Origin: a virus
DNA: 64,000 bases
IMG/VR virus record: IMGVR_UViG_3300045988_042432
Strand: one strand, 5' to 3'
A model generated the notes under the pieces. That model was not told where the DNA came from, searched no databases, and saw only the letters and a program-made list of their open reading frames with translations. This document shows positions 13,831 to 35,228 of this stretch, in pieces. The position numbers and the translations under genes were made by a program. Every line of letters starts with the position of its first letter. Within the stretch, counting starts at the first letter, position 1.

Positions 13831-14091
13831 ATGGATAATCTGTCACTATTAGCAAACCTTCCAAACCATGTTAATGGTAAGCATCTAAATGTGTATAGGT
13901 GGTTAGATGGATGTGGTTGGTCTATTGATGTGGATGGGCATCACTTCGAGAATCATAGTTTTAATCTTTTAGTACATGAAGTTTTAGAATACTTTAGTTG
14001 TTACGAACGTAGCAACGAACGTAGTGGCTATAGTCTAAAAGGAAGCAGAGAGAAGATTATTCAGAAAGTTGAATCAGATTATTTTTATTAA
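13831..14091 (+). CDS. hypothetical protein
   Basis: 86-aa ORF. Confidence 0.5.
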   Translation: MDNLSLLANLPNHVNGKHLNVYRWLDGCGWSIDVDGHHFENHSFNLLVHEVLEYFSCYERSNERSGYSLKGSREKIIQKVESDYFY

Positions 14092-17997: not shown

Positions 17998-18222
17998 ATG
18001 AGTAATTTACCAGCTGGAGCAGAACGTGACCCATTTGCTCCTTATAATGTAGAAGAGAAAGTCTTCAAAGTTGACATAAATGCTAAGGGATTAGCATGGT
18101 ATGAATATTACGGACATTTGGATATAGATGAAGCCATAGAAGCTATTAAGAGCAGAATACAAGCCGCACTTAGTAGCTTAGGAGATGTTGATATTAGTAC
18201 TGTTGATATTGAGGTTTCATGA
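17998..18222 (+). CDS. hypothetical protein
   Basis: 74-aa ORF preceded by a 60-nt AT-rich spacer. Confidence 0.5.
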   Translation: MSNLPAGAERDPFAPYNVEEKVFKVDINAKGLAWYEYYGHLDIDEAIEAIKSRIQAALSSLGDVDISTVDIEVS

Positions 18223-20357: not shown

Positions 20358-20358
20358 T

Positions 20359-20829
20359 ATGATTGAAGTTGAAAGAAAGTATTTAGTGAAAAACAATAGC
20401 TATAAGATGCAGGCTCAAAGAGCAGGATTGATAGTCCAGGGTTATCTTGGAGACAATCCTCTCTCTGAAACTAGGATAGCTATTAGGGACAATCATGGTT
20501 GGCTATTTATTAAAGCTAAGGGAACCCTTAGTCGTTTTGAATGGCAACAAGAAATCCCATTGTATGAAGCACAGGAGCTTCTAAAGTTCTGTCCTAATAT
20601 TATCCGTAAGGTACGCTACATAGTATATCACATGGGTAACAAATGGGAAATTGATGAGTTCTTAGGAGAGAATGAAGGGTTAGTAATTGCCGAGTGTGAG
20701 TTATCACAGGCAACTCTCAACCCTCCTCTGCCTGATTTTGTAGGAGAAGAGGTTACAGAAGATACTAAGTATTATAACTATAACCTCGCGTCTAACCCTT
20801 ATATGAACTGGGACGATGACTCTGAATGA
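20359..20829 (+). CDS. CYTH-domain protein (triphosphate tunnel metalloenzyme family)
   Basis: 'MIEVERKYLV' (ExExK), 'IVQGYL', 'RIAIRD', 'FIKAKG', 'WEIDEFLGENEGLVIAECE' and 'EEVTEDTKYYNYNLA'. The ATG at 20359 lies just after the polymerase stop. Confidence 0.8.
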   Translation: MIEVERKYLVKNNSYKMQAQRAGLIVQGYLGDNPLSETRIAIRDNHGWLFIKAKGTLSRFEWQQEIPLYEAQELLKFCPNIIRKVRYIVYHMGNKWEIDEFLGENEGLVIAECELSQATLNPPLPDFVGEEVTEDTKYYNYNLASNPYMNWDDDSE

Positions 20830-21438: not shown

Positions 21439-22318
21439 CCAGGAACCAGGTGTTGAAGGTCTATTCAAACACATGGAACTGTGTGCAAGGACTTGTTATA
21501 AGTCTGAAGACAAGATAACAGAAGACAGTGCTAAGAAGTTTATTAATAATGTCATTATAGCTAGAGGACATACTGCTATGCTAGAGCATGGTACTGTATA
21601 TCTCATGATTGATTGCTCTGGAAGGCTGCTTGATGTTGCAAATAAGTATGTCAACAACAAGTATTCCGAATGGACCTTACATCTTGATGGAGTGCATTAT
21701 TGTATCACGACCAACTATAGAGTGTTACTCCAAAATGGTTGGCTTGAGGACTTGCAATACTTGTGTGAACCTACAGAATATCACGTTAAACGTGTCACTG
21801 TAAGGTTTATATGTGATATGGGAGTTGCTAGAGAGTTCTGTAGACACAGACTATTTAGCTTCGCTCAAGAAAGTACTAGGTATTGCAATTACTCTAAGGC
21901 TAAGTTTGGTAAGGAATTAAATTGTATAATACCGTGCTGGTATAAGAATATGTTCGAGGGTAATTCATATAATATAGAACTATGTCATACTTATGATTTA
22001 ACTATATCTGAAGGATTGTCTCGAACTGAAGCTGCATGGATACAAGCTATGTGTGAGGCAGAAAGTACATATTTCGGATTGTTGACAGAGGGCGAGCCTG
22101 CTCAACAAGCTAGAAATGTACTACCTTTAGCATTAAAGACAGAATTAATAATGACTGGCACTGTTGAACAATGGATAGAGTTCTTGAAATTGAGATGTGC
22201 AAATGATGCTCATCCGCAGGCAAGAGAACTTGCAATTGAATTACGAGATAGATTACTGTTGGATGACTATATAGATATTGATGCAGAAGGGAATCTACAA
22301 GTATCGAACAGATACTAG
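21404..22318 (+). CDS. thyX: flavin-dependent thymidylate synthase ThyX
   Basis: ThyX signature '[14 protein letters not shown]' (RHRxxSxxxxSxRY) and a C-terminal 'LRC...AHPQ' region. Confidence 0.9.
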
Positions 22319-22613
22319 GAGATATAAGCGAGAACTTCATAAGGAAGAGGCAAAACTCCTAGACTACAAGATGCACTTAGTTATCAGATTTGTATTATTC
22401 TTAAAGTATCTAATCACATTCAGAATGCAGGATGCCAAAGACGCACTAGACATGGACAAGGAATTGTCGAAAGAGGAAGAAGCATTGCTAAGGAAACATC
22501 TTGCTAACTTTCTAAGAAGAGAACCGTATGTTAGACCTTACCCTAAGATAGGTCGTAATGCCCCTTGTCCATGTGGCAGTGGCAAGAAATATAAACATTG
22601 TTGTGGAAGATGA
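22281..22613 (+). CDS. SEC-C motif protein
   Basis: C-terminal '[19 protein letters not shown]' is a SEC-C metal-binding motif. The start is uncertain; ATGs at 22281, 22371 and 22425 are all possible. Confidence 0.5.
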
Positions 22614-23209
22614 CAGATAAGTTTAAATTTGACCCAGAGCATACGTTCTTTACGTCAGATACACATTTTGGTCATGCTAACATTATCAATCTGTGCAATC
22701 GTCCATTTAAGGATGTAAACCATATGAATGATATGTTAGTTGAGAACTGGAATAGTGTGGTTACTGACGATGATACAGTCTTCCATTTGGGAGATTTTGC
22801 TCTAGGTGGTAGTGCAGTATGGAGTAATGTTTTGTCTCGTCTAAAAGGCAAGATTTACCTCATATTGGGAAACCATGACAGGAAGAACATAAGACAAGGT
22901 TACATGGGTAAGTTTGAGATAGTGGTCCCCCAAATGCAGATTTCGATAGAGACTCGTAGTATATACTTAAATCACTATCCGTTTCTGTGTTATGGTGGAA
23001 TATATCGTAAACCAGAGGATGCCGTATGGCAGCTATTTGGACATGTACATTCAGGCCCAAATAGTGCTGGAGCTGATGCAGCTAGACTGCCTTATTTACT
23101 TCCGACTCAGTATGATGTAGGAGTTGATAATAATAATTACACTCCTGTATCTTATGCTCAAGTTAAATGTATAATTAATAAGCAAGTGAATGAAGCGCAG
23201 GAATCTTAG
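22610..23209 (+). CDS. calcineurin-like metallophosphoesterase
   Basis: '[10 protein letters not shown]', 'HLGDF', 'LGNHD' and 'GHVHSG'. The ATG at 22610 overlaps the upstream TGA. Confidence 0.8.
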
Positions 23210-23399
23210 TGGGATATTCATCTTCGATAAGTTAGAAGGAGAGGAGAAGCCTACTCCTACTTGTCTCGAAGATTGCACTCCAGAGACTAGACTTAAATGG
23301 CTAGAGGGACTGGAGAAAGGAGCTCTCATAAATTGCATAGAGCATTTGTGTGAGACTATCAACGAATTTAGTGAATTGTTGGACATTTATAAAGAATAA
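23190..23399 (+). CDS. hypothetical protein
   Basis: 69-aa ORF. Confidence 0.45.
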   Translation: MKRRNLSGIFIFDKLEGEEKPTPTCLEDCTPETRLKWLEGLEKGALINCIEHLCETINEFSELLDIYKE

Positions 23400-23404
23400 G
23401 CATT

Positions 23405-23812
23405 ATGGCTAAAATTATTAGTAGCAAAAAGAAGTATGTTCCAGTTAAGGACTTAAAGGTGTATCCTAGTAATAAGGAAACTATTGAAGTAATTCCCGAT
23501 GATGGATTCAATGGAGCTCATCGTTACCGTGCCCAAATGTGTGCTGGTTTTGTTAATGGCAAAACCAAGTATGTGGATGCTACTGACACAATTCAGTTTG
23601 TCCACAAGCACGAAGACGGTACAGTAACTCCAGGGTGGCAATCAGAACAACTTGCCCTTATCCTGCTTGACAGAGTAAAGAAGTTGAATGAGAAGTTCCC
23701 TTGTGAGCAAAATGCTAAACAAGTTGCTGCTCTAGAAGCTTACCTTGACGCTTGTAAGGAGAGAATTGATGACAGGCTTAACCGTAACGTAATGGGAGAC
23801 TTGAAGGAATGA
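23405..23812 (+). CDS. hypothetical protein
   Basis: 135-aa ORF. Confidence 0.55.
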   Translation: MAKIISSKKKYVPVKDLKVYPSNKETIEVIPDDGFNGAHRYRAQMCAGFVNGKTKYVDATDTIQFVHKHEDGTVTPGWQSEQLALILLDRVKKLNEKFPCEQNAKQVAALEAYLDACKERIDDRLNRNVMGDLKE

Positions 23813-24021
23813 AAGTTGAAGTGAATAGAAATGACGAAATGCCAAAAGCAGGAGACCTAGTAATAGACGAGCTTGGAAATATTGGCATCCTAATGCACAA
23901 TGGTTATATTTGGCTTCTTAAGCATTCAGGAAAGCCTGTAGACGTTCCAACCCTAGTAAGTTACACTGATTCCGACAAATTGTACAAGTTTGAGGGAACT
24001 GTGACTCTTAGTAATGATTAA
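23809..24021 (+). CDS. hypothetical protein
   Basis: 70-aa ORF with an overlapping start. Confidence 0.45.
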   Translation: MKVEVNRNDEMPKAGDLVIDELGNIGILMHNGYIWLLKHSGKPVDVPTLVSYTDSDKLYKFEGTVTLSND

Positions 24022-24241
24022 GACTTATTACTATGCAATAGATAAAGATGGGCAGGGTTGGTATTACGACAACCCGCCTATCTTTGACGGTGAAAGCTGG
24101 AATGTGGACCCTACGTATGACTGCTTAGAATGTATGGGAGCTGTTAATGATTTACATCCTGCAAATCTATTTAGCTTTCCAATTCCGGAAGATATGACGT
24201 ATGAAGATGAACCTATAAAATTTGAAATATGTCTAAAGTAG
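24014..24241 (+). CDS. small paralog family member 1
   Basis: 'TYYYAIDKDGQGWYYDNPP...ESWN...EPIKFEICLK'. Similar to the ORFs at 24497, 24748 and 25002. Confidence 0.5.
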   Translation: MIKTYYYAIDKDGQGWYYDNPPIFDGESWNVDPTYDCLECMGAVNDLHPANLFSFPIPEDMTYEDEPIKFEICLK

Positions 24242-24516
24242 TTACAGTTCACGGGCATACTCTAGAATTAGATATGGGGCCTTCTTGTCCAAATCCTGGG
24301 ATAAGAAGACAGCTGGACGCTAAAGGTGAGCCTTACATGTGCACATCTGACCTGACCACTTGGATAGGGATAGACGGGGATTGGTATCGTATATACAAAC
24401 CTAGTATAACCTTAGAGTGGCCTGGTATTTTAGAACTGGCTGAAACTGAAGACGAGTTATTAGATTATTTAGAGGACGTATCTGAATTTACTAGAAATGA
24501 GAAAGGAAATAACTAA
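24229..24516 (+). CDS. hypothetical protein
   Basis: 95-aa ORF. Confidence 0.45.
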   Translation: MSKVVTVHGHTLELDMGPSCPNPGIRRQLDAKGEPYMCTSDLTTWIGIDGDWYRIYKPSITLEWPGILELAETEDELLDYLEDVSEFTRNEKGNN

Positions 24517-24751
24517 CCCAGTGGGTAAGTGGTGGGTAGTCGCCAATAGATGTGGAGACCTTCATGTAACCGATGGTGACATGCCGGAGAAAGCTGGCAG
24601 CGGTTGGCAAGGAATGAATAACGACTATGAGTGGACTTCTGCCACAGATGATGTATTTAAAGACTGTGTTATTCCAGCTACTACATTTGATAAAGGCCCA
24701 CTACAATTTGAGATTGATGAACAGTTAAACACAACTTGGTATAAAGAATGA
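24497..24751 (+). CDS. small paralog family member 2
   Basis: 'GKWWVVANRCGDLH...GWQG...GPLQFEIDEQ'. Confidence 0.45.
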   Translation: MRKEITNPVGKWWVVANRCGDLHVTDGDMPEKAGSGWQGMNNDYEWTSATDDVFKDCVIPATTFDKGPLQFEIDEQLNTTWYKE

Positions 24752-24999
24752 AACGATTTTGGTGTTGTAGAGACTTAGAAGGAGCTGCTAACGAGGAAGT
24801 ATTTCTGTTTGTTGGAGAAGAACCACCAATTATGGACGATGATGGTGAGTGGGTAGACCCAAGAAAAGAAGGTCTGTTTTGGTCGGAAGAAGACTTCAAT
24901 TTTGACTTCGATAAACTTCTAGGAACCGTTAAGTTCCCTGAGTTAAATAAAGGTGAACGGATTGAGATGAATCTTCAGTTTGAATTTGGAATTAAGTAA
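24748..24999 (+). CDS. small paralog family member 3
   Basis: 'RFWCCRDLEG...GEWVDP...GERIEMNLQFEF'. Confidence 0.45.
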   Translation: MKRFWCCRDLEGAANEEVFLFVGEEPPIMDDDGEWVDPRKEGLFWSEEDFNFDFDKLLGTVKFPELNKGERIEMNLQFEFGIK

Positions 25000-25001
25000 C
25001 T

Positions 25002-25244
25002 ATGCGTTATTGGTATTGTATAGACAACAACGGCAATAAGTGGCTTTACGAAGGGTCAGTGGCTCCAGTTAAATATGATGATGAATGGAATACTTCTGAT
25101 GAAGAGACAGATGACTCTACTTGGATAGGAGAGTTCGATTTAAGAGCTACCTATGGTGTAGGTTTTGTTGAATCACTTCCAGATATTGCTAATGGTGAGA
25201 TGACTGAAATACGGATTAAATATACAGCCGAGAAATGCGAATAG
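25002..25244 (+). CDS. small paralog family member 4
   Basis: 'RYWYCIDNNGNKWLYEG...DEWN...GEMTEIRIKY'. Confidence 0.5.
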   Translation: MRYWYCIDNNGNKWLYEGSVAPVKYDDEWNTSDEETDDSTWIGEFDLRATYGVGFVESLPDIANGEMTEIRIKYTAEKCE

Positions 25245-25939
25245 GAGTTACATCTGATTTACACGGAGTACTTCCCGCAGTTGAAGAATGTGATATATTT
25301 CTCATCTGTGGAGATATCATGCCGTTAAATATACAACTAAACATGCCTAAATCTAGGCTATGGCTTCAAAATACGTTTATTCCATGGGCTAATGGGTTAC
25401 CATGTAAACATGTAGTATTCATAGCTGGTAATCATGACTTCTGGTTTGAAAGAAATGGAGGTTTGGAACCAGATATGTACAACATGTTTCATAAGCCTAC
25501 TGACGGCAAATTGGTGTATCTACATAATAAGTCTTGGGAATATGAGCATGAAATCGAGCCAGGAGTATTCAAGAAGTTTAAAATCTTCGGAACTCCCTAC
25601 TGTAAGCAATTTGGTAATTGGGCGTTCATGAGAGAGCCTGAACGCCTGGAAGCTAAGTATGCTCATATGCCTAGTGATTGTGATATTCTTATATCTCACG
25701 ATGCTCCTAGACTACTTGGGCTAGGTGAGATACATGAAGGAGCGTGGGCAGGAGAAGATGCGGGTAATACATGGTTAGCCGATGAAATCATGCGTAAACA
25801 ACCTAAACATTGTTTCTGCGGACACATTCACAGTGGATGTCATGGAATACAGGAATTTAATGGCATGAAGTTCTCTAACGTATCGTTAGTAAATGAAGAT
25901 TATGTAGTTTCTTACAAACCTCTATATTTGAATGTTTAA
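25235..25939 (+). CDS. calcineurin-like metallophosphoesterase (second copy, different subfamily)
   Basis: 'GVTSDLHG', 'ICGDI', 'AGNHDFW', 'ISHDAP' and 'CGHIHSG'. Confidence 0.8.
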   Translation: MRIGVTSDLHGVLPAVEECDIFLICGDIMPLNIQLNMPKSRLWLQNTFIPWANGLPCKHVVFIAGNHDFWFERNGGLEPDMYNMFHKPTDGKLVYLHNKSWEYEHEIEPGVFKKFKIFGTPYCKQFGNWAFMREPERLEAKYAHMPSDCDILISHDAPRLLGLGEIHEGAWAGEDAGNTWLADEIMRKQPKHCFCGHIHSGCHGIQEFNGMKFSNVSLVNEDYVVSYKPLYLNV

Positions 25940-26171
25940 AAGGATGCCAACTGAAAAGGTAGTTTATACATCTGGCGGCTCTAGCCTATTAACTGCTATA
26001 GCCATAGTATTTGTAATTCTTAAATTAACAGGAACAACTGCTGTTGCAACATGGTCATGGTGGTGGGTACTTGCTCCATTATGGCTGCCAGTAGTCTTCG
26101 CTATAGGTATTGTATTAGTGTTACTTCTAATACTGCTAATAGTTGCCGCAATAGCAGCGTGTTCTAAATAA
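25932..26171 (+). CDS. small membrane protein
   Basis: Hydrophobic segments 'LLTAIAIVFVILKL' and 'WWWVLAPLWLPVVFAIGIVLVLLLILLIVAAIAAC'. Confidence 0.5.
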   Translation: MFKRMPTEKVVYTSGGSSLLTAIAIVFVILKLTGTTAVATWSWWWVLAPLWLPVVFAIGIVLVLLLILLIVAAIAACSK

Positions 26172-26174
26172 AGT

Positions 26175-26753
26175 ATGGATAAGATTTTATTAATTGTAGA
26201 CCCACAGGTGGATTTCATCAGTGGGTCTTTAGCTGTGGAAGGAGCTAAGGAGAAGATAGATGCTCTTGCTAGTGCATTACAGAACGGTGAAATTGACTGT
26301 GACTATGTAATGGTTACTAAGGACTTTCACCCATCTAACCACTGCTCCTTTAAAGAGAACGGAGGCCAATGGCCTCCACATTGTGTTAAAGGTACTACTG
26401 GTAGTTGTATATATGCCCCACTATGGAGTGTAATATGCAACTACGCCTATCGTAAAGATACAGACATCTTTATTAAAGGAGATAGTCCTGACAAAGAAGA
26501 GTATAGTATCTTTGATAATCTAGAAAGTCTTTCTGTTATATCAGACATATTACTTGATTTTGAGTCTGACCCAGACAATGAGATTAGAGTAGTTGGTATA
26601 GCTGGTGATTATTGTGTGCATGAAACTATATGTGACTTGATAGCTATGGGCTATAAAGATAACATTGTAGTAGACACTAAGTATATTGCATCCATAGATG
26701 GTGGAGATAAACTTGCTAATTTAATTAAAAACTGTGGTTTAAAATGGGATTAA
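26175..26753 (+). CDS. pncA: nicotinamidase (isochorismatase family), PncA-like
   Basis: 'LLIVDPQVDF' (catalytic Asp), 'DFHPSNHCSF' (metal site D-x-H-x-x-x-H-x-S-F) and 'GIAGDYCV' (nucleophile Cys). Confidence 0.85.
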   Translation: MDKILLIVDPQVDFISGSLAVEGAKEKIDALASALQNGEIDCDYVMVTKDFHPSNHCSFKENGGQWPPHCVKGTTGSCIYAPLWSVICNYAYRKDTDIFIKGDSPDKEEYSIFDNLESLSVISDILLDFESDPDNEIRVVGIAGDYCVHETICDLIAMGYKDNIVVDTKYIASIDGGDKLANLIKNCGLKWD

Positions 26754-27040
26754 TTTATTCAGTATCGGTTTTGTTCTTCACATTCATGATATTTAGAATG
26801 TATCTAAAGAAGGACATTAGACCCTATATGACAAGTAGAGTGGTTACTTTACTCACAATTCTAGGGTTGTTGCCTTATGTAAATACGGTAATTATAATTG
26901 CAACTCTCGGTGATGCTGTTGTTAAATTCAATGAATACAGGAATCTTACTAAGCAAGAGAGGACAGACAGAATGATAGAATCATTGCAGCTCATTGACTT
27001 AGCAATGGAGAGATTAATTGATAAATTTAAAGAGAAATGA
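26744..27040 (+). CDS. small membrane protein
   Basis: Two hydrophobic helices, then a charged helical tail. Overlaps pncA and pncB at both ends. Confidence 0.5.
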   Translation: MGLIYSVSVLFFTFMIFRMYLKKDIRPYMTSRVVTLLTILGLLPYVNTVIIIATLGDAVVKFNEYRNLTKQERTDRMIESLQLIDLAMERLIDKFKEK

Positions 27041-28200
27041 TAGTAAAATCCATTCTTGATACGGATTTGTATAAATTTACAACTTCGTATGCTTACATGA
27101 AACTATTTCCTCAAGCTAGAGGAACATTTGAGTTCTTTGACCGTGACTTGACAGAGTATCCAGAAGACTTTGTTCAGAAGGTGTACTTGGAGTTAAGTAA
27201 TCTTGGAATGTTACGTCTTACCAATAGTGAACTTGATTATATGACTTCTAACTGTAGATTTGTTCCACAAGTCTACTGGGAATGGTTATATTCTTTCAGG
27301 TTTAACTCTGGCAAAGTGCAAGTATGGCTTGATGACAAGAAACATCTTCATATTACTGTTACTGATTATCTGTACAAAGTAACACTATATGAAGTTCCTA
27401 TTCTAGCCATTATATCTGAACTACGTAATCGTGTATTAGGTAACAACTGTGACATGTCAGAAGTCATTAAGAAGCTTGAACCTAAGTTAAGGTTGTCGAA
27501 TGTTGCAGGAATAAAATTCTCTGAATTTGGTACCAGAAGACGGTTCAGTTATAATGTACAGGATGAGGTAGTATCTGCAATTAAGGAAGGTTCTATCTAT
27601 TGTACTGGCACTTCTAACTGCTATCTGGCTATGAAATATGAAATGCCTATGATGGGAACTCATCCGCATGAGTGGTTCATGTTCCACGGTGCTATGTATG
27701 GCTATAAACAGGCTAATTACATGGCTCTTGAGAATTGGGTAAATGTGTATGACGGTGATTTGGGAATAGCATTGTCTGACACATATACTTCTGAAGTGTT
27801 CATGAAGAACCTGTCTCGCAAGCAAGCTAAATTGTTTGACGGAGTAAGATGTGACTCTGGCGATGAGTTTAAGTTCATAAACAGTATGATTGCTCGTTAT
27901 AAAGAACTTGGAGTAGACCCTACTACTAAGACTATAGTATTCAGTAATGCTTTGGACTTTGACAAATGCCAGGACATTATGGAGTATTGTGGAAGTAGAA
28001 TCAGGTGTTCGTTTGGAATAGGCACTAATCTCACTAATGATACTGGGTTTAAGCCGGCTAATATAGTGATGAAGCTTATTAGCTGTCAAATGAATGCTAA
28101 TCAACCTGTTTATGGATGCGTGAAGCTGTCTGATGATGCCGGTAAACATACTGGAGAAAATAAAGAAGTTAATGCTTGTTTAGTTGAATTAGGATTATGA
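27037..28200 (+). CDS. pncB: nicotinate phosphoribosyltransferase, PncB-like
   Basis: Collinear with E. coli PncB as I recall it: 'ILDTDLYKFT', 'EFGTRRRFS', 'GTSNCYLA', 'MGTHPHEWF', 'LGIALSDTY', 'VRCDSGD', 'IVFSNALD', 'FGIGTNLT' and 'VKLSDDAGK'. Confidence 0.9.
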   Translation: MIVKSILDTDLYKFTTSYAYMKLFPQARGTFEFFDRDLTEYPEDFVQKVYLELSNLGMLRLTNSELDYMTSNCRFVPQVYWEWLYSFRFNSGKVQVWLDDKKHLHITVTDYLYKVTLYEVPILAIISELRNRVLGNNCDMSEVIKKLEPKLRLSNVAGIKFSEFGTRRRFSYNVQDEVVSAIKEGSIYCTGTSNCYLAMKYEMPMMGTHPHEWFMFHGAMYGYKQANYMALENWVNVYDGDLGIALSDTYTSEVFMKNLSRKQAKLFDGVRCDSGDEFKFINSMIARYKELGVDPTTKTIVFSNALDFDKCQDIMEYCGSRIRCSFGIGTNLTNDTGFKPANIVMKLISCQMNANQPVYGCVKLSDDAGKHTGENKEVNACLVELGL

Positions 28201-29159
28201 GTGAACTAAATTATGAACACGTATTTAACGTATTAGTTGATAAAACAGCTGAATACGTTACTTCTAACAACCTTAAAGCAATGGTATTGGGCATCAGTGG
28301 AGGAATTGACTCCACTGTTGTCGCTGCTATCTGCCATGAGGTTAGTAAGAAGACTGGTATTCCTCTTATAGGAAGAAGTCTTCCTATTAAGAATAAAAGT
28401 GATGAGTTCGCTACTTCTGTACATGTAGGAGAAGCCTTCTGTAATGAATTTAGTGTTTACAGACTTGAACGTTCCTATCGTGCAGCTTTGTTTGATGCCT
28501 GTGCTGATGCAGGTGATGTCAATATGGCTAATTCTTACTATCTCGATGAACTAGAAGAAATGCCTAGTAGAACTCCTATTGCTAATGGTAATCTTCAAGC
28601 TAGGTGCAGAATGATGTATCTATATGATATAGCTAGTCGCCATAAAGGATTAGTAATGAGTACAGATAATCAAACTGAATATCAGCTTGGATTCTGGACT
28701 ATTCATGGTGATGTAGGTGATTTTGACCCAATTCAAGACCTATGGAAGACAGAAGTTTATGAGTTAGCTAAGTGGATTAGTAATCGCTATAAAAACATTG
28801 AACACCACCATACTATAATGACTGGTGCTGGAAGTAAATCTGATGCTATAGAGTTATCTATAGCTCTTACTCCTACGGACGGTCTTGGCATTAGTAACAG
28901 TGACTTAGAGCAAATTGGAGCTAAGAGTTACGATGAGGTTGATGATATACTCTCTAGATATATTCCATTTAAGGAGTATCGACAGAAGCATGGAGAACCA
29001 CTTCATCCACATGATGAAATAGCAGAATCTGATTGCTGGTCACAATTATGTGTTAGGCATGGAGAAGATGTAGTCAATAAGGTTTGGAGCCGACATTTAG
29101 CTTCCGAATTTAAACGTAAGAAAGCTCCAATTTATATATCTAGGGAATTATATGAATGA
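28197..29159 (+). CDS. nadE: NH3-dependent NAD+ synthetase, NadE-like
   Basis: PP-loop 'GISGGIDSTVVAA'. At 320 aa there is no glutaminase domain. Confidence 0.88.
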   Translation: MSELNYEHVFNVLVDKTAEYVTSNNLKAMVLGISGGIDSTVVAAICHEVSKKTGIPLIGRSLPIKNKSDEFATSVHVGEAFCNEFSVYRLERSYRAALFDACADAGDVNMANSYYLDELEEMPSRTPIANGNLQARCRMMYLYDIASRHKGLVMSTDNQTEYQLGFWTIHGDVGDFDPIQDLWKTEVYELAKWISNRYKNIEHHHTIMTGAGSKSDAIELSIALTPTDGLGISNSDLEQIGAKSYDEVDDILSRYIPFKEYRQKHGEPLHPHDEIAESDCWSQLCVRHGEDVVNKVWSRHLASEFKRKKAPIYISRELYE

Positions 29160-30255
29160 TTTAGAGAGAAGGGTTCACACAGCTATTAAAGAGTGTTATG
29201 ATGTAGTCATAGCCCCAACTTACGGGTTAGGTTCTGCATTAGCCGCTGTATTTATGAAGATACATGGAAGAGCTCCACATAGGGCGACTTTTAGAACAGA
29301 TTATTATGCAGTAGACTTACCAGAAGGACGAGAATGGTCAGATGCAGAATCTAAAGGAAAGATTAAATCTATTTCCGGAAGTAAATCTATAGACTATTGG
29401 GCAACTCAACACAACCTTTTAAAGTTGTTTCCAGATGCAGTTCATATAAGGTGGGGAGATGATTACTTCTTATTTACTGATGAGTATATTATAGACCTTC
29501 AGGACCTAGAAATTCTAATGTTGAATACTGATGATATTCCAAAAGAAATAGTAGATTGCTTGGTATATAAAGAGGCTAAAGCTACTATGGAATACGTAAC
29601 CTACAGTAATCAAGGATTCAGAACCACACTAATGAAAGTAAAAGAACAAGATTGTGATATACAATCTAATTATAATGATGACTTACCACATCAACAAATA
29701 ACCGATATGATAAATTCCAAGGAAAGTGGAATTGCCATACTACACGGAGTTCCTGGTTGCGGTAAGACTAGTTATATTAGAAAGCTAATAGCCGACAATC
29801 CAGGTAAGAAGTTTGTGTTCTTAGACGCTTCTACGTTTCAATACATTGGGGATGCTTCATTTATTGAACTTCTTACTAATAAGAGAGATTCAGTGTTTGT
29901 AGTAGAAGACTGCGAGGACTTATTAGTAAGTAGGGACACTAAAGGAAATCACAGAATATCCTCTTTACTAAACCTGTCAGACGGTATACTTGGAGACTCT
30001 TTAAACCTTAAGTTCATATGTACCTTTAATGCTGATATTAGTAGTATTGATAAAGCATTATTACGTAAAGGAAGATTGAAAGTTAAATATGAATTTGGTA
30101 AACTTACCAAAGATAAAGCTACTGCCTTAGCTGTTAAACTTGGTAAGACTGAACCTGTAACTGAAGACATGGCATTGTGTGATGTCTATAACTTAGGCAC
30201 AGACAATGGTGGTGAACAAATTGAAAGTGATAGACCTAAAATTGGATTTAGATGA
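29152..30255 (+). CDS. AAA+ ATPase with unknown N-terminal domain
   Basis: Walker A 'HGVPGCGKTS', Walker B 'VFVVEDCEDL', 'FICTFNA' and 'ALLRKGRLKV' (classical AAA clade second region of homology). Confidence 0.8.
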   Translation: MNDLERRVHTAIKECYDVVIAPTYGLGSALAAVFMKIHGRAPHRATFRTDYYAVDLPEGREWSDAESKGKIKSISGSKSIDYWATQHNLLKLFPDAVHIRWGDDYFLFTDEYIIDLQDLEILMLNTDDIPKEIVDCLVYKEAKATMEYVTYSNQGFRTTLMKVKEQDCDIQSNYNDDLPHQQITDMINSKESGIAILHGVPGCGKTSYIRKLIADNPGKKFVFLDASTFQYIGDASFIELLTNKRDSVFVVEDCEDLLVSRDTKGNHRISSLLNLSDGILGDSLNLKFICTFNADISSIDKALLRKGRLKVKYEFGKLTKDKATALAVKLGKTEPVTEDMALCDVYNLGTDNGGEQIESDRPKIGFR

Positions 30256-30509
30256 AAATGAAATTGTATTATGGAGCCTTGGCCTTGCTTTGGCTCCTTT
30301 CTAGTTGTACTCCCAGTGATAATGTAACTGACAACCATGACAAGGTTGGAACTTGTCGTAATGGTCATATCAGAGCTCTTACTTTGAATGGTCATACATA
30401 TTACTGGCAAAATCATTGGTTTGCACATGCAGGAGACTGTAAGAAGTGTAAGCATGAACTTGATAGTATAGTTAAAGCAGCAGTTAAGGAGGCAATGCAA
30501 TGCGAGTAG
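30252..30509 (+). CDS. small lipoprotein
   Basis: Signal peptide 'MKMKLYYGALALLWLLSS|C' with the lipobox L-S-S-C. The mature part is Cys/His-rich. Confidence 0.6.
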   Translation: MKMKLYYGALALLWLLSSCTPSDNVTDNHDKVGTCRNGHIRALTLNGHTYYWQNHWFAHAGDCKKCKHELDSIVKAAVKEAMQCE

Positions 30510-31075
30510 GATTATTCTTTGGCTCATTTGACCCTCCCCATATCGGGCATGTAAATGTGGTAATGGGAGCCATTAACTCCAATCAGGTGGATAGAGTGTT
30601 AGTGATTCCTGCTTATCAAAACTTATGGAAGGAGAATAGCTCTAAATTTTCATATAGGTATGCTATGAGTTGTATGCAATTCGACACTTTGCCTTTTGTA
30701 CATGTAAGTGATGTAGAGAAAGACTTAGCAGGTCCTGCTTATCCCAGAGGTATACCTACATACGTTGTACTGGAGGAATTAAAGTCTAGAATGCCAGAGG
30801 ATGAATTAGTAATTATTACTACTCCAGAAACCTATAAGGATATTCCTGAATGGCATAAAGGGTCTGTAATATTGTGTGACTATAAATTCCTCATGGTGGT
30901 AAGTGGAGAGGAGACCCCACAAGACCTTCCGGAGAATGTACATGTTGTATACGTTCCGCAAATAACAATATGCTCTACTTGCATTCGCAATAGAGTAAAG
31001 CTTGGAATATACATCCAGCCATTTGTAAGAGATACTGTAGAAGCATTCATTGACCAATATAGATTATATGTATAA
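30500..31075 (+). CDS. nadD: nicotinate/nicotinamide mononucleotide adenylyltransferase, NadD-like
   Basis: 'GLFFGSFDPPHIGH' (the GxFxPxHxGH motif) and C-terminal 'ICSTCIRNRV' (ISSTxIR-like). Confidence 0.85.
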   Translation: MRVGLFFGSFDPPHIGHVNVVMGAINSNQVDRVLVIPAYQNLWKENSSKFSYRYAMSCMQFDTLPFVHVSDVEKDLAGPAYPRGIPTYVVLEELKSRMPEDELVIITTPETYKDIPEWHKGSVILCDYKFLMVVSGEETPQDLPENVHVVYVPQITICSTCIRNRVKLGIYIQPFVRDTVEAFIDQYRLYV

Positions 31076-31103
31076 AAGCTGGATTAACTGAAGAATTTTA
31101 CTA

Positions 31104-31658
31104 ATGAAGAATTATCCTATTACAATTGAAACAGGTGAACATGCTGGGGAGACAGTCTGGGTTCACCGTAGTATAGCCGTTGCAGGATTTATATTTTGTA
31201 AAATTAACGATGAATGGTGTGTTCTTGCTAATCAAAGAGGTGAAGGAGCACCAGACTTTCAAGGATATTGGAACTGTCCTTGCGGCTATTTGGACTTTGA
31301 TGAGACATTAGCAGAAGCTTGCTCTAGGGAAATCTACGAGGAAACTGGAGTTAAGATTGAACCTAGTGCTCTTTATATGTGTAGCGTTAACGATGACCCG
31401 AAAGACTCTAACAGACAGAATGTTACTATGAGGTTCATGGCTGTAGTAGACGAGAGTCATATTGGAATTTCTACTAATGCTATCAAAGGACAGCTAGGCG
31501 GAGAGGAGAATGAGGTAAAGGCTATCATGTGGGTTAAAATATCTGACCTTGATAATTACCAGTGGGCGTTTAATCATAGACATCTCATTGAAGGCATCTT
31601 TTATACTTATGTAGATTATGAAGAAGTAGAAGGTTTAGACGATTTATTTGCTGAATGA
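31104..31658 (+). CDS. Nudix hydrolase
   Basis: Perfect Nudix box 'GYLDFDETLAEACSREIYEETGV' (Gx5Ex7REUxEExGU). Confidence 0.9.
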   Translation: MKNYPITIETGEHAGETVWVHRSIAVAGFIFCKINDEWCVLANQRGEGAPDFQGYWNCPCGYLDFDETLAEACSREIYEETGVKIEPSALYMCSVNDDPKDSNRQNVTMRFMAVVDESHIGISTNAIKGQLGGEENEVKAIMWVKISDLDNYQWAFNHRHLIEGIFYTYVDYEEVEGLDDLFAE

Positions 31659-32200
31659 CATACTTCATTAGTGGACACAGAGACATAACTCCTGAAGAAT
31701 TTGAGAAGTTCTACGTTCCAGCAATTGTTGATGTGATAGATACATGCAACGATAATTACGATGACTGTGAATTTGTAGTCGGAGATTGTAGGGGTTGTGA
31801 TGAAATGGCAGCTAATTTCATAGCAAACTACATTAAGGAGAATACAGATGATACAGAGTGTCCTCCATGTATTTTGTGCATTTATCATATGTTCTCTGAA
31901 CCTAGGTTTAGAGTAGGCGTAGCTGGACAAGACGGTTGTTATCATGTTGACATGGTAGATGAGCTCAATGCAGACTTATGCGAGGATGATGACCCATATA
32001 CCATAGATGATTGTCCTATTGTACATTATGTAGGTGGATTTGAGACAGATAGAGACCGTGATTCTGCTATGACCAATGTTTCAAGTGAGGATATTGCCTT
32101 TATAAGAAGCAAATCTAAATGGGATTCTGGTACAGCAGAGAATATATTACGTAGGCACACTATGAAATATCTAAACCCTAGTTTTTATGGACAACAGTAA
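31655..32200 (+). CDS. SLOG-superfamily (DUF2493/YspA-like) protein candidate
   Basis: 'YFISGHRDITPEEF', 'FVVGDCRGCDEMAANF' and 'RDRDSAMTNVSSEDIAFI...SGTAENILR' follow the GxRd / G-x-x-G-x-D-x-x-A / RN..M...AF..SrGT pattern recalled for DUF2493. Confidence 0.45.
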   Translation: MTYFISGHRDITPEEFEKFYVPAIVDVIDTCNDNYDDCEFVVGDCRGCDEMAANFIANYIKENTDDTECPPCILCIYHMFSEPRFRVGVAGQDGCYHVDMVDELNADLCEDDDPYTIDDCPIVHYVGGFETDRDRDSAMTNVSSEDIAFIRSKSKWDSGTAENILRRHTMKYLNPSFYGQQ

Positions 32201-32432
32201 AGATTGGGGTGAGTTCCTGGAGGGCATTAAGGCTGCACAACAGGCAACTGAAGCTCAAAAGGAAGCTAATGAGCAACATGAAAAGTATGAAAGATTGAGA
32301 TTTGAATTTACATTAGCATTAATCAATAACAATGACCTCTTACATGAGAGGTCATTTAAAGAGATATGTCAATTAGGAGTTGAATTAACAGATGAATTTA
32401 TGAAACATGAATCTGAAAAAGGGAAAGTTTAA
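32187..32432 (+). CDS. hypothetical protein
   Basis: 81-aa ORF with an overlapping start. Confidence 0.45.
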   Translation: MDNSKDWGEFLEGIKAAQQATEAQKEANEQHEKYERLRFEFTLALINNNDLLHERSFKEICQLGVELTDEFMKHESEKGKV

Positions 32433-33144
32433 AATTGTTGAGGGAACAAGAGTTAGAATGGTTTCTTCAAAAGATACTCATATAGTCGAAGGAGCTTACG
32501 GTACTGTAGTCAGTCCTGGTATAAGAGAGTCGGAAGTGCGTTGGGATAGTATGTTAGCAATTAGAGCAGATTATAGATACAGAAATGAACTAGAAGATGC
32601 TCTCATCATTCCAGTTTATAATGACTTATTGGACCCTTCTGGAAACTTCCAAATTTGGACTCCTGAACCTATTGCGCGAATATACCTTGACGATTGTATC
32701 AAGTATATAGGAGAGGATACAAAAGACCTCAAATATGGTGATTTGCTTTGTGTATATTCTATGACTTTATCAGAGCATTCATTGTATGCAATACAGTTAA
32801 GTAATTACAAACTACACAAATTGGACACCAGTGTCTGTGCATTAGAAGGAAAGGGATATGCTTTAGCTAAAGACACTAAGGTCAAAGTAGTCCTAGACTC
32901 CGCTTATACAGAAGTTGGACAAACTGGTAAAATTTATCGTACTGATTACAGGTCAGCGCTGCCCTATGAAGTTATTATAGATAAGGGTGATTGTGTTTGG
33001 GTTGCTGGATGTACCATACAGAATGTTGATACTGAAGTGTACATAGAAGAGTATTCAGCAGATGTTGAGAATGAAGTATCACCAGACGAGGATATACTAG
33101 AGAACGGATTCTCCAGACAAGTAACATTTTATGAAAAGGATTAA
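32407..33144 (+). CDS. hypothetical protein
   Basis: 245-aa ORF. Confidence 0.55.
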   Translation: MNLKKGKFKIVEGTRVRMVSSKDTHIVEGAYGTVVSPGIRESEVRWDSMLAIRADYRYRNELEDALIIPVYNDLLDPSGNFQIWTPEPIARIYLDDCIKYIGEDTKDLKYGDLLCVYSMTLSEHSLYAIQLSNYKLHKLDTSVCALEGKGYALAKDTKVKVVLDSAYTEVGQTGKIYRTDYRSALPYEVIIDKGDCVWVAGCTIQNVDTEVYIEEYSADVENEVSPDEDILENGFSRQVTFYEKD

Positions 33145-34036
33145 CAAATATTTATTTCTAGACGTAGACGGGGTTCTCAATAGTGTCTCATGGTACAGAG
33201 CAGAATGGAATAAGGACCATGTGTATCCTCAAGGTGACTTTGACCCTAAGTGTGTTGAAATTGTAAACAGAATAGTCAAAGAGACTGGCTGCAAGGTAGT
33301 AGTCAGCTCCTCTTGGAGAGCTGAAATTAATTTGCAATCAATCTTTGACAAAGCTGGTTTAAAGTTCAAGATACATAGTATTACTCCGTTTGGAGTCCAT
33401 AGAGGTTGTGAAATAAGGGATTGGTTAGCATCCGAAACCGAACCTTATGTTTATGCTATATTGGATGATGACAGAAGTATGCTTGCAGAACAGAGGAAGT
33501 ACTTCATTAAGACTAACACAGTTACGGGTATTACTGATGAAGACGCAAGACATGTAATTAACATTTTAAATAGAAATGATATGTGGAATGATAAATTAAA
33601 CTCCTTAATTATGGAGTCTATGAAGAATCACGACGCTGTTCGGACTACAGTCCTCCGTGCAATTAAGACGGAATTTAGCAACTATGCAACTGCTAAGAAT
33701 GCTAAACCTCTTGACAATGCTGCTGAAATAGCCATTATTAAGAAGTTACGTGACCAACGTATTGATAATGCCGAACAGTATCGTATGGCAGGTCGTCAGG
33801 ATTTATATGATAATGAAATGGCAGAATCTCTTATCTTGAATGAGTTTCTGCCCGAGGTCCCTGATGATAAAGTACTTGCTTTAGGGTTAGTAGAAGTCTG
33901 TGCATTACAAGGATGTGAAGACGGGCCTAAGATTCCTAAGAGCAAAATGGGAATCATTATCAAAGAGCTTAAAGCTATGTTCCCTGCCGCAGATGGTAAA
34001 CAGATTGCTGATTTAGTAAAATCTTGTGTAGTATAA
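33131..34036 (+). CDS. HAD-like phosphatase fused to a YqeY/GatB C-terminal-like domain
   Basis: HAD motifs 'FLDVDGVLNS', 'VVVSSSWR' and 'AILDDD'. The C-terminal half, 'VRTTVLRAIKTEFSNY...EIAIIKKLRDQRIDNAEQYRMAGRQDLYDNEMAESLILNEFLPE', matches the YqeY pattern. Confidence 0.7.
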   Translation: MKRINKYLFLDVDGVLNSVSWYRAEWNKDHVYPQGDFDPKCVEIVNRIVKETGCKVVVSSSWRAEINLQSIFDKAGLKFKIHSITPFGVHRGCEIRDWLASETEPYVYAILDDDRSMLAEQRKYFIKTNTVTGITDEDARHVINILNRNDMWNDKLNSLIMESMKNHDAVRTTVLRAIKTEFSNYATAKNAKPLDNAAEIAIIKKLRDQRIDNAEQYRMAGRQDLYDNEMAESLILNEFLPEVPDDKVLALGLVEVCALQGCEDGPKIPKSKMGIIIKELKAMFPAADGKQIADLVKSCVV

Positions 34037-34037
34037 T

Positions 34038-34289
34038 ATGACACTAAAAGAAATTGTAACCTTACCTTATCCAGCTAAGATATCACATGCTATAGCTGGT
34101 GTACTTTATTATCAAATAATAGCTGGTGATAAAGCTATTGTCTTTCCAATAGACATGAATGACAGAGACGATGTAGGAACTACTACGTTTCTAGCAGAGT
34201 ATCCGAAACCTATCACATTAATGAGATACATTCGTAAAGCAATTGACTCTGGTGAGTTAGTAATAGCTACTACTGATGCCGAAGTATAA
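34038..34289 (+). CDS. hypothetical protein
   Basis: 83-aa ORF. Confidence 0.45.
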   Translation: MTLKEIVTLPYPAKISHAIAGVLYYQIIAGDKAIVFPIDMNDRDDVGTTTFLAEYPKPITLMRYIRKAIDSGELVIATTDAEV

Positions 34290-34458
34290 TGTAAGTATCG
34301 ATAGACAGCTTAGATGTCGTCTATGCTTTGACATAAAAGTTGAAGCCGACAGCGAAGACGAAGCTTGGGAAAAGGCTTACGATACAGTAGACCTAGGAGA
34401 TTTAGAAGTGAGAGATTGTGAGTATAGCGACGATGAAATAACCCTTCTAGAAGAATGA
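34276..34458 (+). CDS. hypothetical protein
   Basis: 60-aa acidic ORF. Confidence 0.4.
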   Translation: MPKYNVSIDRQLRCRLCFDIKVEADSEDEAWEKAYDTVDLGDLEVRDCEYSDDEITLLEE

Positions 34459-35171
34459 TTATAGGTATAGTTGGTAAGAAGCAAAGCGGTAAGGATACAG
34501 TTTGTAATATCATTCGGTATATAAGTTGGCTTAAATCTTCCAAACTATGGGGAGAAGTAACTCTGAATGCTAAACACTTTGAAGCTGTCTGTGAAAGTGA
34601 GGATATTGCTCCTATACTTAGTATATGGGAGAAACATCCATGGGCAGAGAAGCTGAAACAGTGTGCATCCATTATACTAGGATGTCATGTGTCAAGCTTT
34701 GAGACAGAGAGTATCAAAGAATCATTTACACATATTCCAATTAGTAATAGTGAAGGAGAACCTATGACTCATAGAGAGTTCCTACAAGTACTAGGTACTG
34801 AAGTGGGAAGAACTATTGACCCTAACCTATGGGTTAAATCTATGATGTCTGACTATGATAAAGGATTTAAGAGTTATCCTACTTATGGTACTGATGAATA
34901 TGGCAATACTGCGTTTGTACACATGAATACAGTAGAGCCTTGTTGGATTATGCCAGATACTAGGTTTCTAAATGAAGTCCAAGCTATCAAAGATAGGAAA
35001 GGAATTGTCATTAAGGTAAACAGAGATACCGGATTACTAGATAATCATATTTCAGAACATGCTTTGGATGATTATAATGACTATGACTACGTCATTGATA
35101 ATAACGGAACTCTTGGTGAGTTAATTGTCAAAGTAGCAACTATGATGGAGACCTTAGGGGTGCTTCAATAA
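34455..35171 (+). CDS. P-loop kinase, phage dNMP kinase-like
   Basis: 'IIGIVGKKQSGKDTV' resembles the T4 gp1-type 'GxxRSGKDT' P-loop. Confidence 0.6.
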   Translation: MIIGIVGKKQSGKDTVCNIIRYISWLKSSKLWGEVTLNAKHFEAVCESEDIAPILSIWEKHPWAEKLKQCASIILGCHVSSFETESIKESFTHIPISNSEGEPMTHREFLQVLGTEVGRTIDPNLWVKSMMSDYDKGFKSYPTYGTDEYGNTAFVHMNTVEPCWIMPDTRFLNEVQAIKDRKGIVIKVNRDTGLLDNHISEHALDDYNDYDYVIDNNGTLGELIVKVATMMETLGVLQ

Positions 35172-35177
35172 ACAATA

Positions 35178-35228
35178 ATGGCCTGTATGGTGGAGTGTAA
35201 TGCTCTACTGTACAGGCCATTTTTTTTT
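35178..35228. terminator. hairpin plus T-run terminator between convergent gene arms
   Basis: ATGGCCTGTA (35178-35187) pairs with TACAGGCCAT (35211-35220), followed by a run of 9 T. On the minus strand the same stem is followed by TTATTGTTT. Confidence 0.75.

Follow-up and report, generated by a model that had tools for sequence, protein, structure and literature searches.

Why would a phage of the gut carry all the enzymes needed to rebuild nicotinamide adenine dinucleotide (NAD+) out of nicotinamide? This question is raised by a block of genes on the + strand (26175-31658) of the virus record IMGVR_UViG_3300045988_042432, of which a stretch of 64,000 nucleotides, called the window throughout this work, was analyzed. 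The window comes from a crAss-like phage (Crassvirales), a group that ranks with the commonest viruses in the human gut. The block encodes relatives of the nicotinamidase PncA, the nicotinate phosphoribosyltransferase (NAPRTase) PncB, the adenylyltransferase NadD and the NAD+ synthetase NadE, together with a Nudix hydrolase that probably acts on ADP-ribose (ADPR). We propose, with somewhat better than even confidence, that it is an NAD+ salvage module carried by a phage of gut Bacteroidales, for which the likeliest selective reason is to keep NAD+ available under host abortive-infection defenses that act through NADases.

The predicted route from nicotinamide to NAD+

The sequence-based identity of PncB is unambiguous. 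The protein lies above the NCBIfam cut-offs of TIGR01514 (413 bits against 269.55) and NF003704 (443 against 379), matches the NAPRTase of Porphyromonas gingivalis (2im5) with 390 bits, and keeps the GTHPHEW motif intact. NadE likewise exceeds its family threshold (TIGR00552, 135 bits against 63.65), matches Pfam NAD_synthase at E 1e-37 and carries the SGGIDS P-loop. Family searches found no glutaminase domain in NadE, and because it is a single-domain protein it is predicted to be ammonia-dependent; its nearest solved structures are those of Campylobacter and Helicobacter.

The PncA-like protein, which contains TKDFHPSNHCSF, clears the threshold of Pfam Isochorismatase (38.4 bits against 27, E 1.7e-9). 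Every PDB sequence match better than E 1e-5 is a nicotinamidase, including yeast Pnc1 (2h0r, E 1e-21), and the top matches include 3r2j, a Leishmania alpha/beta-hydrolase-like protein. When aligned to Pnc1, the phage protein is seen to keep the triad D9/K101/C147 and the metal ligands D50/H52/H69. The NadD-like protein passes the Pfam CTP_transf_like gathering score, and all of its top matches in NCBIfam (E 1e-26) and the PDB (E 2.6e-14) are NadD. Its GSFDPPHIGH and ICSTCIR segments align with both signature motifs of solved NadD structures, (H/T)xGH and ISxTxxR, while its preference for nicotinic acid mononucleotide (NaMN) or nicotinamide mononucleotide (NMN) is not readable from sequence. 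It is also the fastest-evolving member of the set, with 29-48% identity between sub-lineages.

On these family matches and motifs, it is highly probable that the four proteins cover the whole series from nicotinamide through nicotinic acid, NaMN and nicotinic acid adenine dinucleotide (NaAD) up to NAD+. The set is chemically coherent because NadE needs NaAD to be made and PncA needs nicotinamide as input. An earlier note, made from the letters of the DNA and its open reading frames (ORFs), had named the same four enzymes after the strings DFHPSNHCSF, GSFDPPHIGH, ICSTCIR and SGGIDS. All four strings are present where it had read them, and the assignments were borne out by the Pfam, NCBIfam and PDB matches and by the aligned motifs. 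The profile searches that it proposed gave matches to the Isochorismatase, NAPRTase, NAD_synthase, CTP_transf_like and NUDIX families, with PncA and NadD scoring below the NCBIfam equivalog level.

The Nudix protein

The protein encoded behind the nadD-like gene matches Pfam NUDIX at E 2e-13. As the earlier note had stated, it carries a canonical Nudix box (tested with the pattern GX5EX7REUXEEXGU) and begins 28 nt downstream of its neighbor; the box spans G61-V83, and residues E67, R75, E76, E79 and E80 are invariant across 42 homologues. The top NCBIfam match is the Nudix half of the NadM-Nudix ADPR pyrophosphatases. The AlphaFold model of the protein (mean predicted local distance difference test score, pLDDT, 84) has as its best Foldseek match the Nudix domain of NrtR with ADP-ribose (3gz8, E 1.8e-10). 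Further fold matches are a Francisella NadM-Nudix protein at 1.4e-8 and Francisella and Synechocystis NadM-Nudix structures at about 1e-8 to 2e-7; NUDT15 and NudC are matched at about 1e-8 to 5e-8, the same range as NadM-Nudix.

A near-invariant proline, P99, lies 16 residues past the box at the position of the ADPRase marker proline; a downstream proline in this region has been described as a mark of ADPR diphosphatases (PMC5389931). A NudC-type NADH pyrophosphatase was considered and ruled out, since the motif SQPWPFPxS (SQPWPFPQS) is absent. At the level of sequence the matches are generic, the source annotations of homologues are mixed, and PADLOC matches the protein weakly to the candidate PDC-S07. 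The features of sequence and model together make an ADPR pyrophosphatase the probable identity, in keeping with the activity toward ADPR that had been suggested before.

Conservation, gene order and origin of the cluster

An initial IMG/VR scan with PncB yielded 25 loci; a profile scan found 405 viral stretches that have a relative of PncB, and the best 80 of these were taken. The locus counts given here cover 81 loci (numbered with the prefix L), whose PncB relatives are 56-100% identical. In 70 of the 81, pncA, pncB, nadE, nadD and nudix lie together within 10 kb, and because the grouping of the NAD genes recurs to this extent it is clearly not due to chance. The search for co-occurrence suggested by the earlier note thus found the four genes together, and the Nudix gene with them. 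The pncA-like gene was found in at least 70 related loci, and most of the remaining loci are short contigs or deletion variants.

The NAD genes always lie on one strand and occur in at least four orders. The window has pncA-pncB-nadE-nadD-nudix, whereas nudix-pncA-pncB-nadE-nadD is found in L082-L084, pncA-nudix-pncB-nadE-nadD in L086, L087 and L091, and pncA-pncB-AAA-nadE-SLOG-nadD-nudix in L093. Since the Nudix gene stays with the four enzyme genes through these rearrangements, its linkage is more than inherited synteny, and the diversity of orders argues for a functional module of which it is a part. The proposal that the Nudix protein belongs with the four enzymes gains support from this retained adjacency.

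The module is accessory and not core. Three genomes that are otherwise 94-99% identical (L006, L019 and L024, as assembled) carry clean deletions (Table 1), all of which disable pncB and two of which also hit nadE; L010 lacks nadD, the Nudix gene and orf181.

Sequence variation in nadE is also uneven. Its middle part (~28400-29000) shows a DNA identity of 57-83% in IMG/VR genomes whose flanks exceed 93%, and the NadE protein is 73-90% identical where adjoining genes are 98-100% identical. A second segment of the same kind (57-83%, flanks >93%) lies at ~33000-33200. Both look like allele-replacement hot spots.

PncB is rare among described phages. In 50,697 phage records a handful of matches was obtained, with no named crAss-like record among them: three fecal entries called 'Bacteriophage sp.', the huge phages LR756500/501/503/511, Atu_ph07, Phosso and Mcat17. 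LR756501 (L027, 735 kb) has pncB, nadE and pncA within 8 kb, and in Agrobacterium phage Atu_ph07 (L030) a stretch of 6 kb has a 'hypothetical protein' that is pncA-like, a gene annotated as ADP-ribose pyrophosphatase, and pncB; both are jumbo phages with partial versions of the module. The record CAKLQH020000008.1 (L029, 'Acinetobacter phage MD-2021a') was rejected as a pncB phage, as it is an ordinary bacterial chromosome (glmS, glmU, ribH, nusB, phoBR). When a collection of species-representative genomes was scanned with PncB, the single match was the chromosomal PncB of a Bacteroides metagenome-assembled genome (66% identity). That gene lies among cobalamin genes, with no relative of pncA, nadE, nadD or the Nudix gene within 6 kb. 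Because the Bacteroides gene lacks these partners, the phage cluster looks assembled from host-like genes rather than captured whole.

Genomic context of the block

The assignment to Crassvirales rests on PolA and on layout; the capsid and terminase genes lie outside the window. PolA (18219-20357) is closest to that of cr111_1 (Steigviridae; 47% identity over 100% of the length), followed over the same full length by IAS virus (45%) and crAss001 (41%). As in cr111_1, a replication arm converges on giant genes of the opposite strand. The unannotated human-fecal sequence MT835470.1 (117,447 bp) is 93% identical to the window across the block. The host phylum is probably Bacteroidota, and PncB is Bacteroidota-like.

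The + strand arm carries genes for NrdD, dUTPase, a Dda-like helicase, an ATP-dependent DNA ligase, RNA ligase, PNKP, a CCA-type nucleotidyltransferase, ThyX and a dNMP kinase. Four giant - strand ORFs of 1525, 804, 3254 and 2967 aa (35234-60894) stand where cr111_1 has its RNA-polymerase subunit genes. The likeness to those genes is one of position only, as tblastn found no similarity, and the giant ORFs that were tested had no PHROG match. Beyond PolA the arm runs on for ~14.8 kb in the window and for ~4.4 kb in cr111_1, whose 42-kb region around PolA holds no homologue of any block gene. Since the corresponding stretch of cr111_1 is short and lacks these genes, the NAD cluster belongs to an accessory region by which the replication arm is expanded at its end.

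The block itself consists of eight abutting genes in the order pncA-like, orf98, pncB, nadE, AAA ATPase, orf85, nadD-like and Nudix (Table 1). Successive start and stop codons overlap by 10, 4, 4, 8, 4 and 10 nt up to the gap before the Nudix gene. The earlier note had described an NAD operon in which every start codon from pncA to nadD overlaps the preceding stop. The overlaps and the NAD genes are there, but overlap is a genome-wide property and not specific to the block, because 32 of the 55 + strand junctions across the window overlap, and the description had left out orf98, the AAA ATPase and orf85, three genes inside the block with no NAD link.

The block sits in a tight array of 26 genes (22598-35171) with junction gaps of at most 30 nt, which is ended by a strong hairpin followed by a T-run; the GC skew flips its sign at this hairpin, where the + strand array meets the - strand giant genes. 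A sigma-70 promoter scan of 20-36 kb gave 56 sites against 58 expected by chance, with a consensus that does not cover Bacteroidales or crAss promoters. A 220-aa antisense ORF (27487-28149, - strand) lies wholly within pncB, and it is probably spurious, since the + strand coding signal there is strong and the GC skew agrees.

Table 1. Features of the NAD+ gene block and its surroundings in the window, and deletions seen in related genomes
Feature	Coordinates	Strand	Description
Calcineurin-like metallophosphoesterase	25235-25939	+	234 aa; Pfam Metallophos E 5e-10; upstream of pncA
tm79, small predicted membrane protein	25932-26171	+	Between phosphoesterase and pncA; kept in many related loci
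pncA-like nicotinamidase	26175-26753	+	192 aa; nicotinamide -> nicotinic acid + NH3 (predicted)
orf98, small predicted membrane protein	26744-27040	+	98 aa; not core
pncB nicotinate phosphoribosyltransferase	27037-28200	+	387 aa; nicotinic acid + phosphoribosyl pyrophosphate (PRPP) (+ATP) -> NaMN (predicted)
nadE NH3-dependent NAD+ synthetase	28197-29159	+	320 aa; NaAD + ATP + NH3 -> NAD+ (predicted)
AAA+ ATPase, classic clade	29152-30255	+	367 aa; Pfam AAA E 4e-11; lineage-specific insert
orf85, lipoprotein-like N-terminus	30252-30509	+	85 aa
nadD-like nicotinate-mononucleotide adenylyltransferase	30500-31075	+	191 aa; NaMN + ATP -> NaAD (predicted)
Nudix hydrolase, probable ADP-ribose pyrophosphatase	31104-31658	+	184 aa; ADPR -> AMP + ribose-5-P (predicted)
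orf181, SLOG-superfamily (YspA/YAcAr-like) protein	31655-32200	+	4-nt overlap with Nudix stop codon
Hairpin + T-run	35177-35221	.	20-bp stem, 8 G-C pairs, then T8; ends + strand array
Deletion in L006	28136-28498		363 nt absent
Deletion in L019	27866-28128		263 nt absent
Deletion in L024	27224-28601		1378 nt absent

Neither orf98 nor orf85 has a family match in Pfam, NCBIfam or PHROGs; orf98 is found only in close relatives and some sub-lineages. The AAA ATPase matches Afg2, Bcs1 and Rpt-type ATPases in the PDB. It was rejected as a part of the NAD pathway, as it is absent from most related clusters and recurs in a few; a homologue with 47-49% identity lies between pncB and nadE in three divergent clusters (L076, L089 and L093). 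The orf85 gene accompanies the AAA gene in close relatives and in L015, and it occurs alone in L040.

Directly downstream of the block, orf181 has 379 homologues, one of which is named YspA. Pfam YAcAr (PF10686) weakly matches 7 of the 47 members (best E 0.0015), and a PDB sequence search with orf181 gave no match. Its AF2 model (pLDDT 89.6) has LOG, DprA and the SLOG domain of ThsA as top Foldseek hits, all of them weak (E 0.06-0.5), and viral YspA/DUF2493 proteins are among the fold matches. From sequence and model, we class it as a likely member of the SLOG superfamily. It carries a Cys/Asp-rich insertion of ~40 residues, which most homologues lack.

Upstream, the metallophosphoesterase matches MPPED2 (cyclic-nucleotide-phosphodiesterase-like) in the PDB at E 5e-9 and, over its full length, the PADLOC 'phage defence candidate' PDC-S10 at E 1.4e-38. 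It is found in synteny at most related loci, the rearranged L091 among them, and a homologue of orf181 is present in 59 of the 81 loci; both are frequent companions of the cluster, and neither is universal. The tm79 protein has only a sub-threshold Pfam match, and a PADLOC scan of the AAA and SLOG proteins gave nothing meaningful.

Elsewhere in the window, the RNA ligase (11733-13121), the CCA/poly(A)-polymerase-head nucleotidyltransferase (14091-14867), the PNKP-type phosphatase (15860-16654) and a HAD_SAK_2 + YqeY fusion (33131-34036), all on the + strand, form a probable tRNA/RNA-repair set, judged from their sequences. A CYTH-domain protein is encoded at 20320-20829 and a second metallophosphoesterase at 22598-23209.

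The nrdD gene, which encodes the anaerobic ribonucleotide reductase, is split into a 568-aa N-terminal piece (2750-4456, +) and a 159-aa piece (5298-5777), with an ORF for an HNH endonuclease (4586-5317) between them. The shorter piece matches profile positions 415-560 of 562, i.e., the C-terminal end, and the arrangement looks like a homing-endonuclease or intron insertion. Other homing-type endonucleases lie at 12-791 (NUMOD1) and 798-1976 (HNH). A scan of the window for tRNA genes found none. Recoding of stop codons after 22318 was suspected and ruled out, as an ordinary SEC-C motif ORF (22278-22613) fills the gap. The small ORFs at 23809-25244 were rejected as a paralogous family, since an all-against-all blastp gave only E 0.04-0.5.

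Proposed role and alternative explanations

In the mechanism that we propose, PncA would deamidate nicotinamide to nicotinate, PncB would join nicotinate to PRPP at the expense of ATP to give NaMN, and the NadD-like enzyme would adenylate NaMN to NaAD. The ammonia-dependent NadE would then amidate NaAD to NAD+, again using ATP. The Nudix protein would split ADP-ribose into AMP and ribose-5-phosphate; in this way the second NAD+ cleavage product would be cleared, and carbon could go back toward PRPP. As a net result, the phage would rebuild NAD+ during its replication from NAD+ cleavage products or from the niacin of the gut. NAD+ would thus be kept available when NADase-type abortive infection of the host depletes it, in a way that resembles the NAD+ reconstitution pathways NARP1-3, although by the deamidated branch. 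We infer the enzyme activities, the substrate choice of the Nudix protein and the counter-defense role from the established chemistry of the families and from the analogy with NARP systems. The chances that counter-defense is the main role appear to be about even.

Two features of the genome support a counter-defense role. The same arm encodes RNA ligase, PNKP, CCA-type nucleotidyltransferase and HAD_SAK_2 proteins, i.e., functions of tRNA repair and counter-defense, and no obvious phage-specific consumer of NAD+ was seen in the window, where the DNA ligase is of the ATP-dependent type. It has also been reported that infection by the crAss-like phage DAC15 lowers NAD+ in B. thetaiotaomicron and that anti-Thoeris genes are common in gut phages.

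Several observations weigh against the proposed module or its defensive role. The best NCBIfam match of the PncA-like protein, the nicotinamidase family NF008623, reaches 74 bits against a cut-off of 174, and the NadD-like protein reaches 85 bits against an equivalog cut-off of 112.45. In fold E-value, other Nudix enzymes lie only about two orders of magnitude away from the ADPR-type ones. Nudix homologues occur without NAD genes, one of them, 53% identical, adjoining a CCA-adding enzyme in a T4-like phage that lacks NAD genes; homologues of orf181 are likewise found elsewhere without NAD genes, and so neither family is devoted to NAD salvage alone. A PRPP synthetase was not seen in the block or among the annotated + strand ORFs, and the host would therefore have to convert ribose-5-phosphate to PRPP. 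In ATP and in number of steps, the four-step route is costlier than NARP2, and it duplicates host enzymes, of which at least PncB exists in Bacteroides; for these reasons the block may merely sustain flux after host shut-off. Finally, as the deletion variants show, the phage can do without the module, in some settings at least.

The explanation that survives best beside a defensive role is that of a general auxiliary metabolic module, which would increase or sustain NAD(P) during infection for the nucleotide metabolism of the phage and the energy metabolism of the host, without a specific link to NADase defenses, for example after shut-off of host transcription or when gut niacin is available. 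We consider it rather unlikely. The cluster does lie among genes for NrdD, dUTPase, ThyX (which uses NADPH) and a dNMP kinase, the gut-phage literature treats such genes as auxiliary metabolic genes (PMC11662467, PMC11780533), the jumbo phage PA5oct upregulates the pncA-pncB1-nadE operon of its host in ordinary infection, and the host has its own PncB. On the other hand, PncA and an ADPR-type Nudix enzyme aim at the two products of NAD+ cleavage and not at vitamin uptake. The accessory, repeatedly deleted state of the module suits conditionally useful anti-defense genes better than core metabolism, and every phage NAD+ pathway tested to date acts against NAD+ depletion.

It is unlikely, and more so than general metabolism, that the pathway consists of the four enzyme genes only and that the Nudix, SLOG and metallophosphoesterase proteins are independent of it. 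The Nudix substrates could then be RNA caps (NAD-RNA decapping, RppH-like), damaged nucleotides or other dinucleotides. The homologue in the T4-like phage, the generic sequence-level matches, the NUDT15 and NudC fold matches at E ~1e-8, and a SLOG homologue in a 209-kb phage that does not adjoin NAD synthesis genes all speak for such independence. However, the Nudix gene stays beside the NAD genes through four gene orders while the SLOG and phosphoesterase genes do not, its best sequence and fold matches belong to the ADPR-binding NrtR and NadM-Nudix clade, and it combines the marker proline with the lack of the NADH-pyrophosphatase motif.

Least probable of all is that the module mainly removes inhibitors or signals, with PncA clearing nicotinamide and the Nudix, SLOG and phosphoesterase proteins degrading or sequestering ADPR-derived signals such as the cyclic ADPR (cADPR) isomers of Thoeris: the SLOG fold is that of the ThsA sensor domain that binds 3'cADPR, the phosphoesterase resembles MPPED2 and PDC-S10, and phages are known to have enzymes by which cADPR signals are degraded and NAD+ synthesis is fed, but this explanation leaves the conserved PncB, NadD and NadE unaccounted for, the SLOG and phosphoesterase proteins are only weakly assigned, and several cluster types lack these two genes.

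Maintenance of NAD+ under NADase attack thus remains the role that we favor. In a stronger form, which we put forward only tentatively, pncA, pncB, nadD, nadE and the Nudix ADPRase would constitute a true counter-defense pathway of Crassvirales, in effect a 'NARP4', with the Nudix enzyme integral to it as the step that clears ADPR and returns ribose-5-phosphate; the neighboring SLOG and metallophosphoesterase proteins might add sequestration or degradation of signals. To our knowledge, no counter-defense mechanism has been assigned to crAss-like phages. If the 'NARP4' interpretation is true, Crassvirales would have their first assigned anti-defense mechanism, and the NARP class would gain its first member with a need for at least four enzymes.

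The predicted chemistry recycles nicotinamide and disposes of ADP-ribose, i.e., it deals with both products of an NADase defense. The cluster is compact, conserved and directly clonable as a candidate for a fourth, deamidated route of NAD+ reconstitution, and the deletion variants provide natural controls. Should the defensive role be true, NAD+ depletion would also be countered through a longer, deamidated pathway, phage fitness would be tied to niacin, nicotinamide and ammonia in the gut, and parts would be added for the engineering of Bacteroides phages. Should the module serve auxiliary metabolism only, it would still represent a case of a non-jumbo phage that built all four steps of a cofactor pathway out of scattered host-like genes.

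Comparison with known systems

Related gene sets have been reported before. Li et al. (Microbiome 2024, PMC11662467) described 174 gut 'NAD-jumbo phages', among them the Bacteroidota phage Kuafu_71 with a pncB-nadD-nadE cluster. These phages share with the block the clustering of pncB, nadD and nadE, the gut origin and the predicted Bacteroidota hosts; their clusters, known from bioinformatics alone, were proposed to serve NAD+ supply or counter-defense. Unlike the NAD-jumbo phages, whose genomes exceed 200 kb, the phage of the window is crAss-like and not jumbo: the near-identical MT835470.1 has 117 kb, and among related IMG/VR contigs those listed are mostly 60-190 kb long. The block also goes beyond those clusters by having pncA, so that it would start from nicotinamide, and a constantly associated Nudix gene.

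In another study (Theranostics 2025, PMC11780533), K08281, K00763, K00969 and K01916 were found together on gut viral contigs enriched in healthy controls, in whom crAss-like viruses were also more common. The four functions are the same as in the block and were recorded at the level of annotation; motifs, phage lineage, the Nudix gene, gene order and counter-defense were not treated. A 2026 paper on Xanthomonas phage X1 suggested that phage pncB/nadD/nadE may counter NAD+ depletion, and Iyer et al. (2021) framed phage NAD+ synthesis and Nudix processing of ADPR as adaptations to conflict.

The novelty implied by the earlier note does not stand beside these publications, as complete Preiss-Handler clusters, gut contigs with pncA/pncB/nadD/nadE and the suggestion of a role against depletion are already in print. 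In the literature, we found no study that tests the pathway or assigns it to Crassvirales, and none that mentions its constant Nudix partner, the varied order of the genes or the deletion variants. The added value of the present work is modest and lies in an abundant non-jumbo lineage of gut phages, in completeness from nicotinamide onward and in the five-gene architecture.

NARP1, NARP2 and NARP3 restore NAD+ against NADase defenses, and after them the finding is unsurprising. The description of the block as a third route, offered in the earlier note, has become obsolete because NARP3 exists (PnuC transporter + NadR; Sci Adv 2026, PMC13464706). NARP3 is likewise a phage system of NAD+ restoration, and it was shown to defeat Sir2-HerA; it imports nicotinamide riboside and has no component homologous to the block. 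No PnuC or NadR kinase domain was found in the block, and the matches of NadR models are confined to ~40 residues at the start of the NadD-like protein (E > 1e-4).

NARP2 (Nampt + Nmnat) and the NadV/NatV pair of KVP40 are alike to the block in that NAD+ is rebuilt from nicotinamide and PRPP. They follow a two-step amidated route via NMN, whereas the block would need four steps via nicotinate, NaMN and NaAD and requires NadE. In contrast to the Nampt of NARP2, the phosphoribosyltransferase of the block is a NAPRTase equivalog, with a weak partial PHROG match to the Nampt family (E 3e-11). In KVP40 NatV, as in the bacterial NadM-Nudix proteins, an adenylyltransferase is joined to an ADPR-type Nudix domain, which parallels the adjacency of nadD and nudix in the window.

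NARP1 (Adps + Namat) and NARP1-AP use the products of NAD+ cleavage, as the block is predicted to do, and accessory enzymes acting on ADPR derivatives have been recruited to their operon. In NARP1, ADPR is pyrophosphorylated and joined directly to nicotinamide, whereas the block would hydrolyze ADPR and not reuse it intact. Neither a PRPP-synthetase-like Adps nor a Namat was found among the block proteins with Pfam, NCBIfam and PHROGs.

The closest chemical counterparts are bacterial. Nicotinamide salvage pathway I (PncA-PncB-NadD-NadE) and the NrtR/NadM-Nudix regulons have the same enzymes and the same chemistry as predicted for the block. The Bacteroides contig that was looked at has a solitary pncB amid cobalamin genes, whereas in the phage the genes are gathered in one cluster; the phage NadE also differs from bacterial salvage systems in being a single-domain, apparently ammonia-dependent enzyme with a hypervariable segment. 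As judged from its predicted enzymes, the block would work like a NARP and is not a member of NARP1, NARP2 or NARP3; it appears to be the bacterial four-step salvage pathway moved into a phage.

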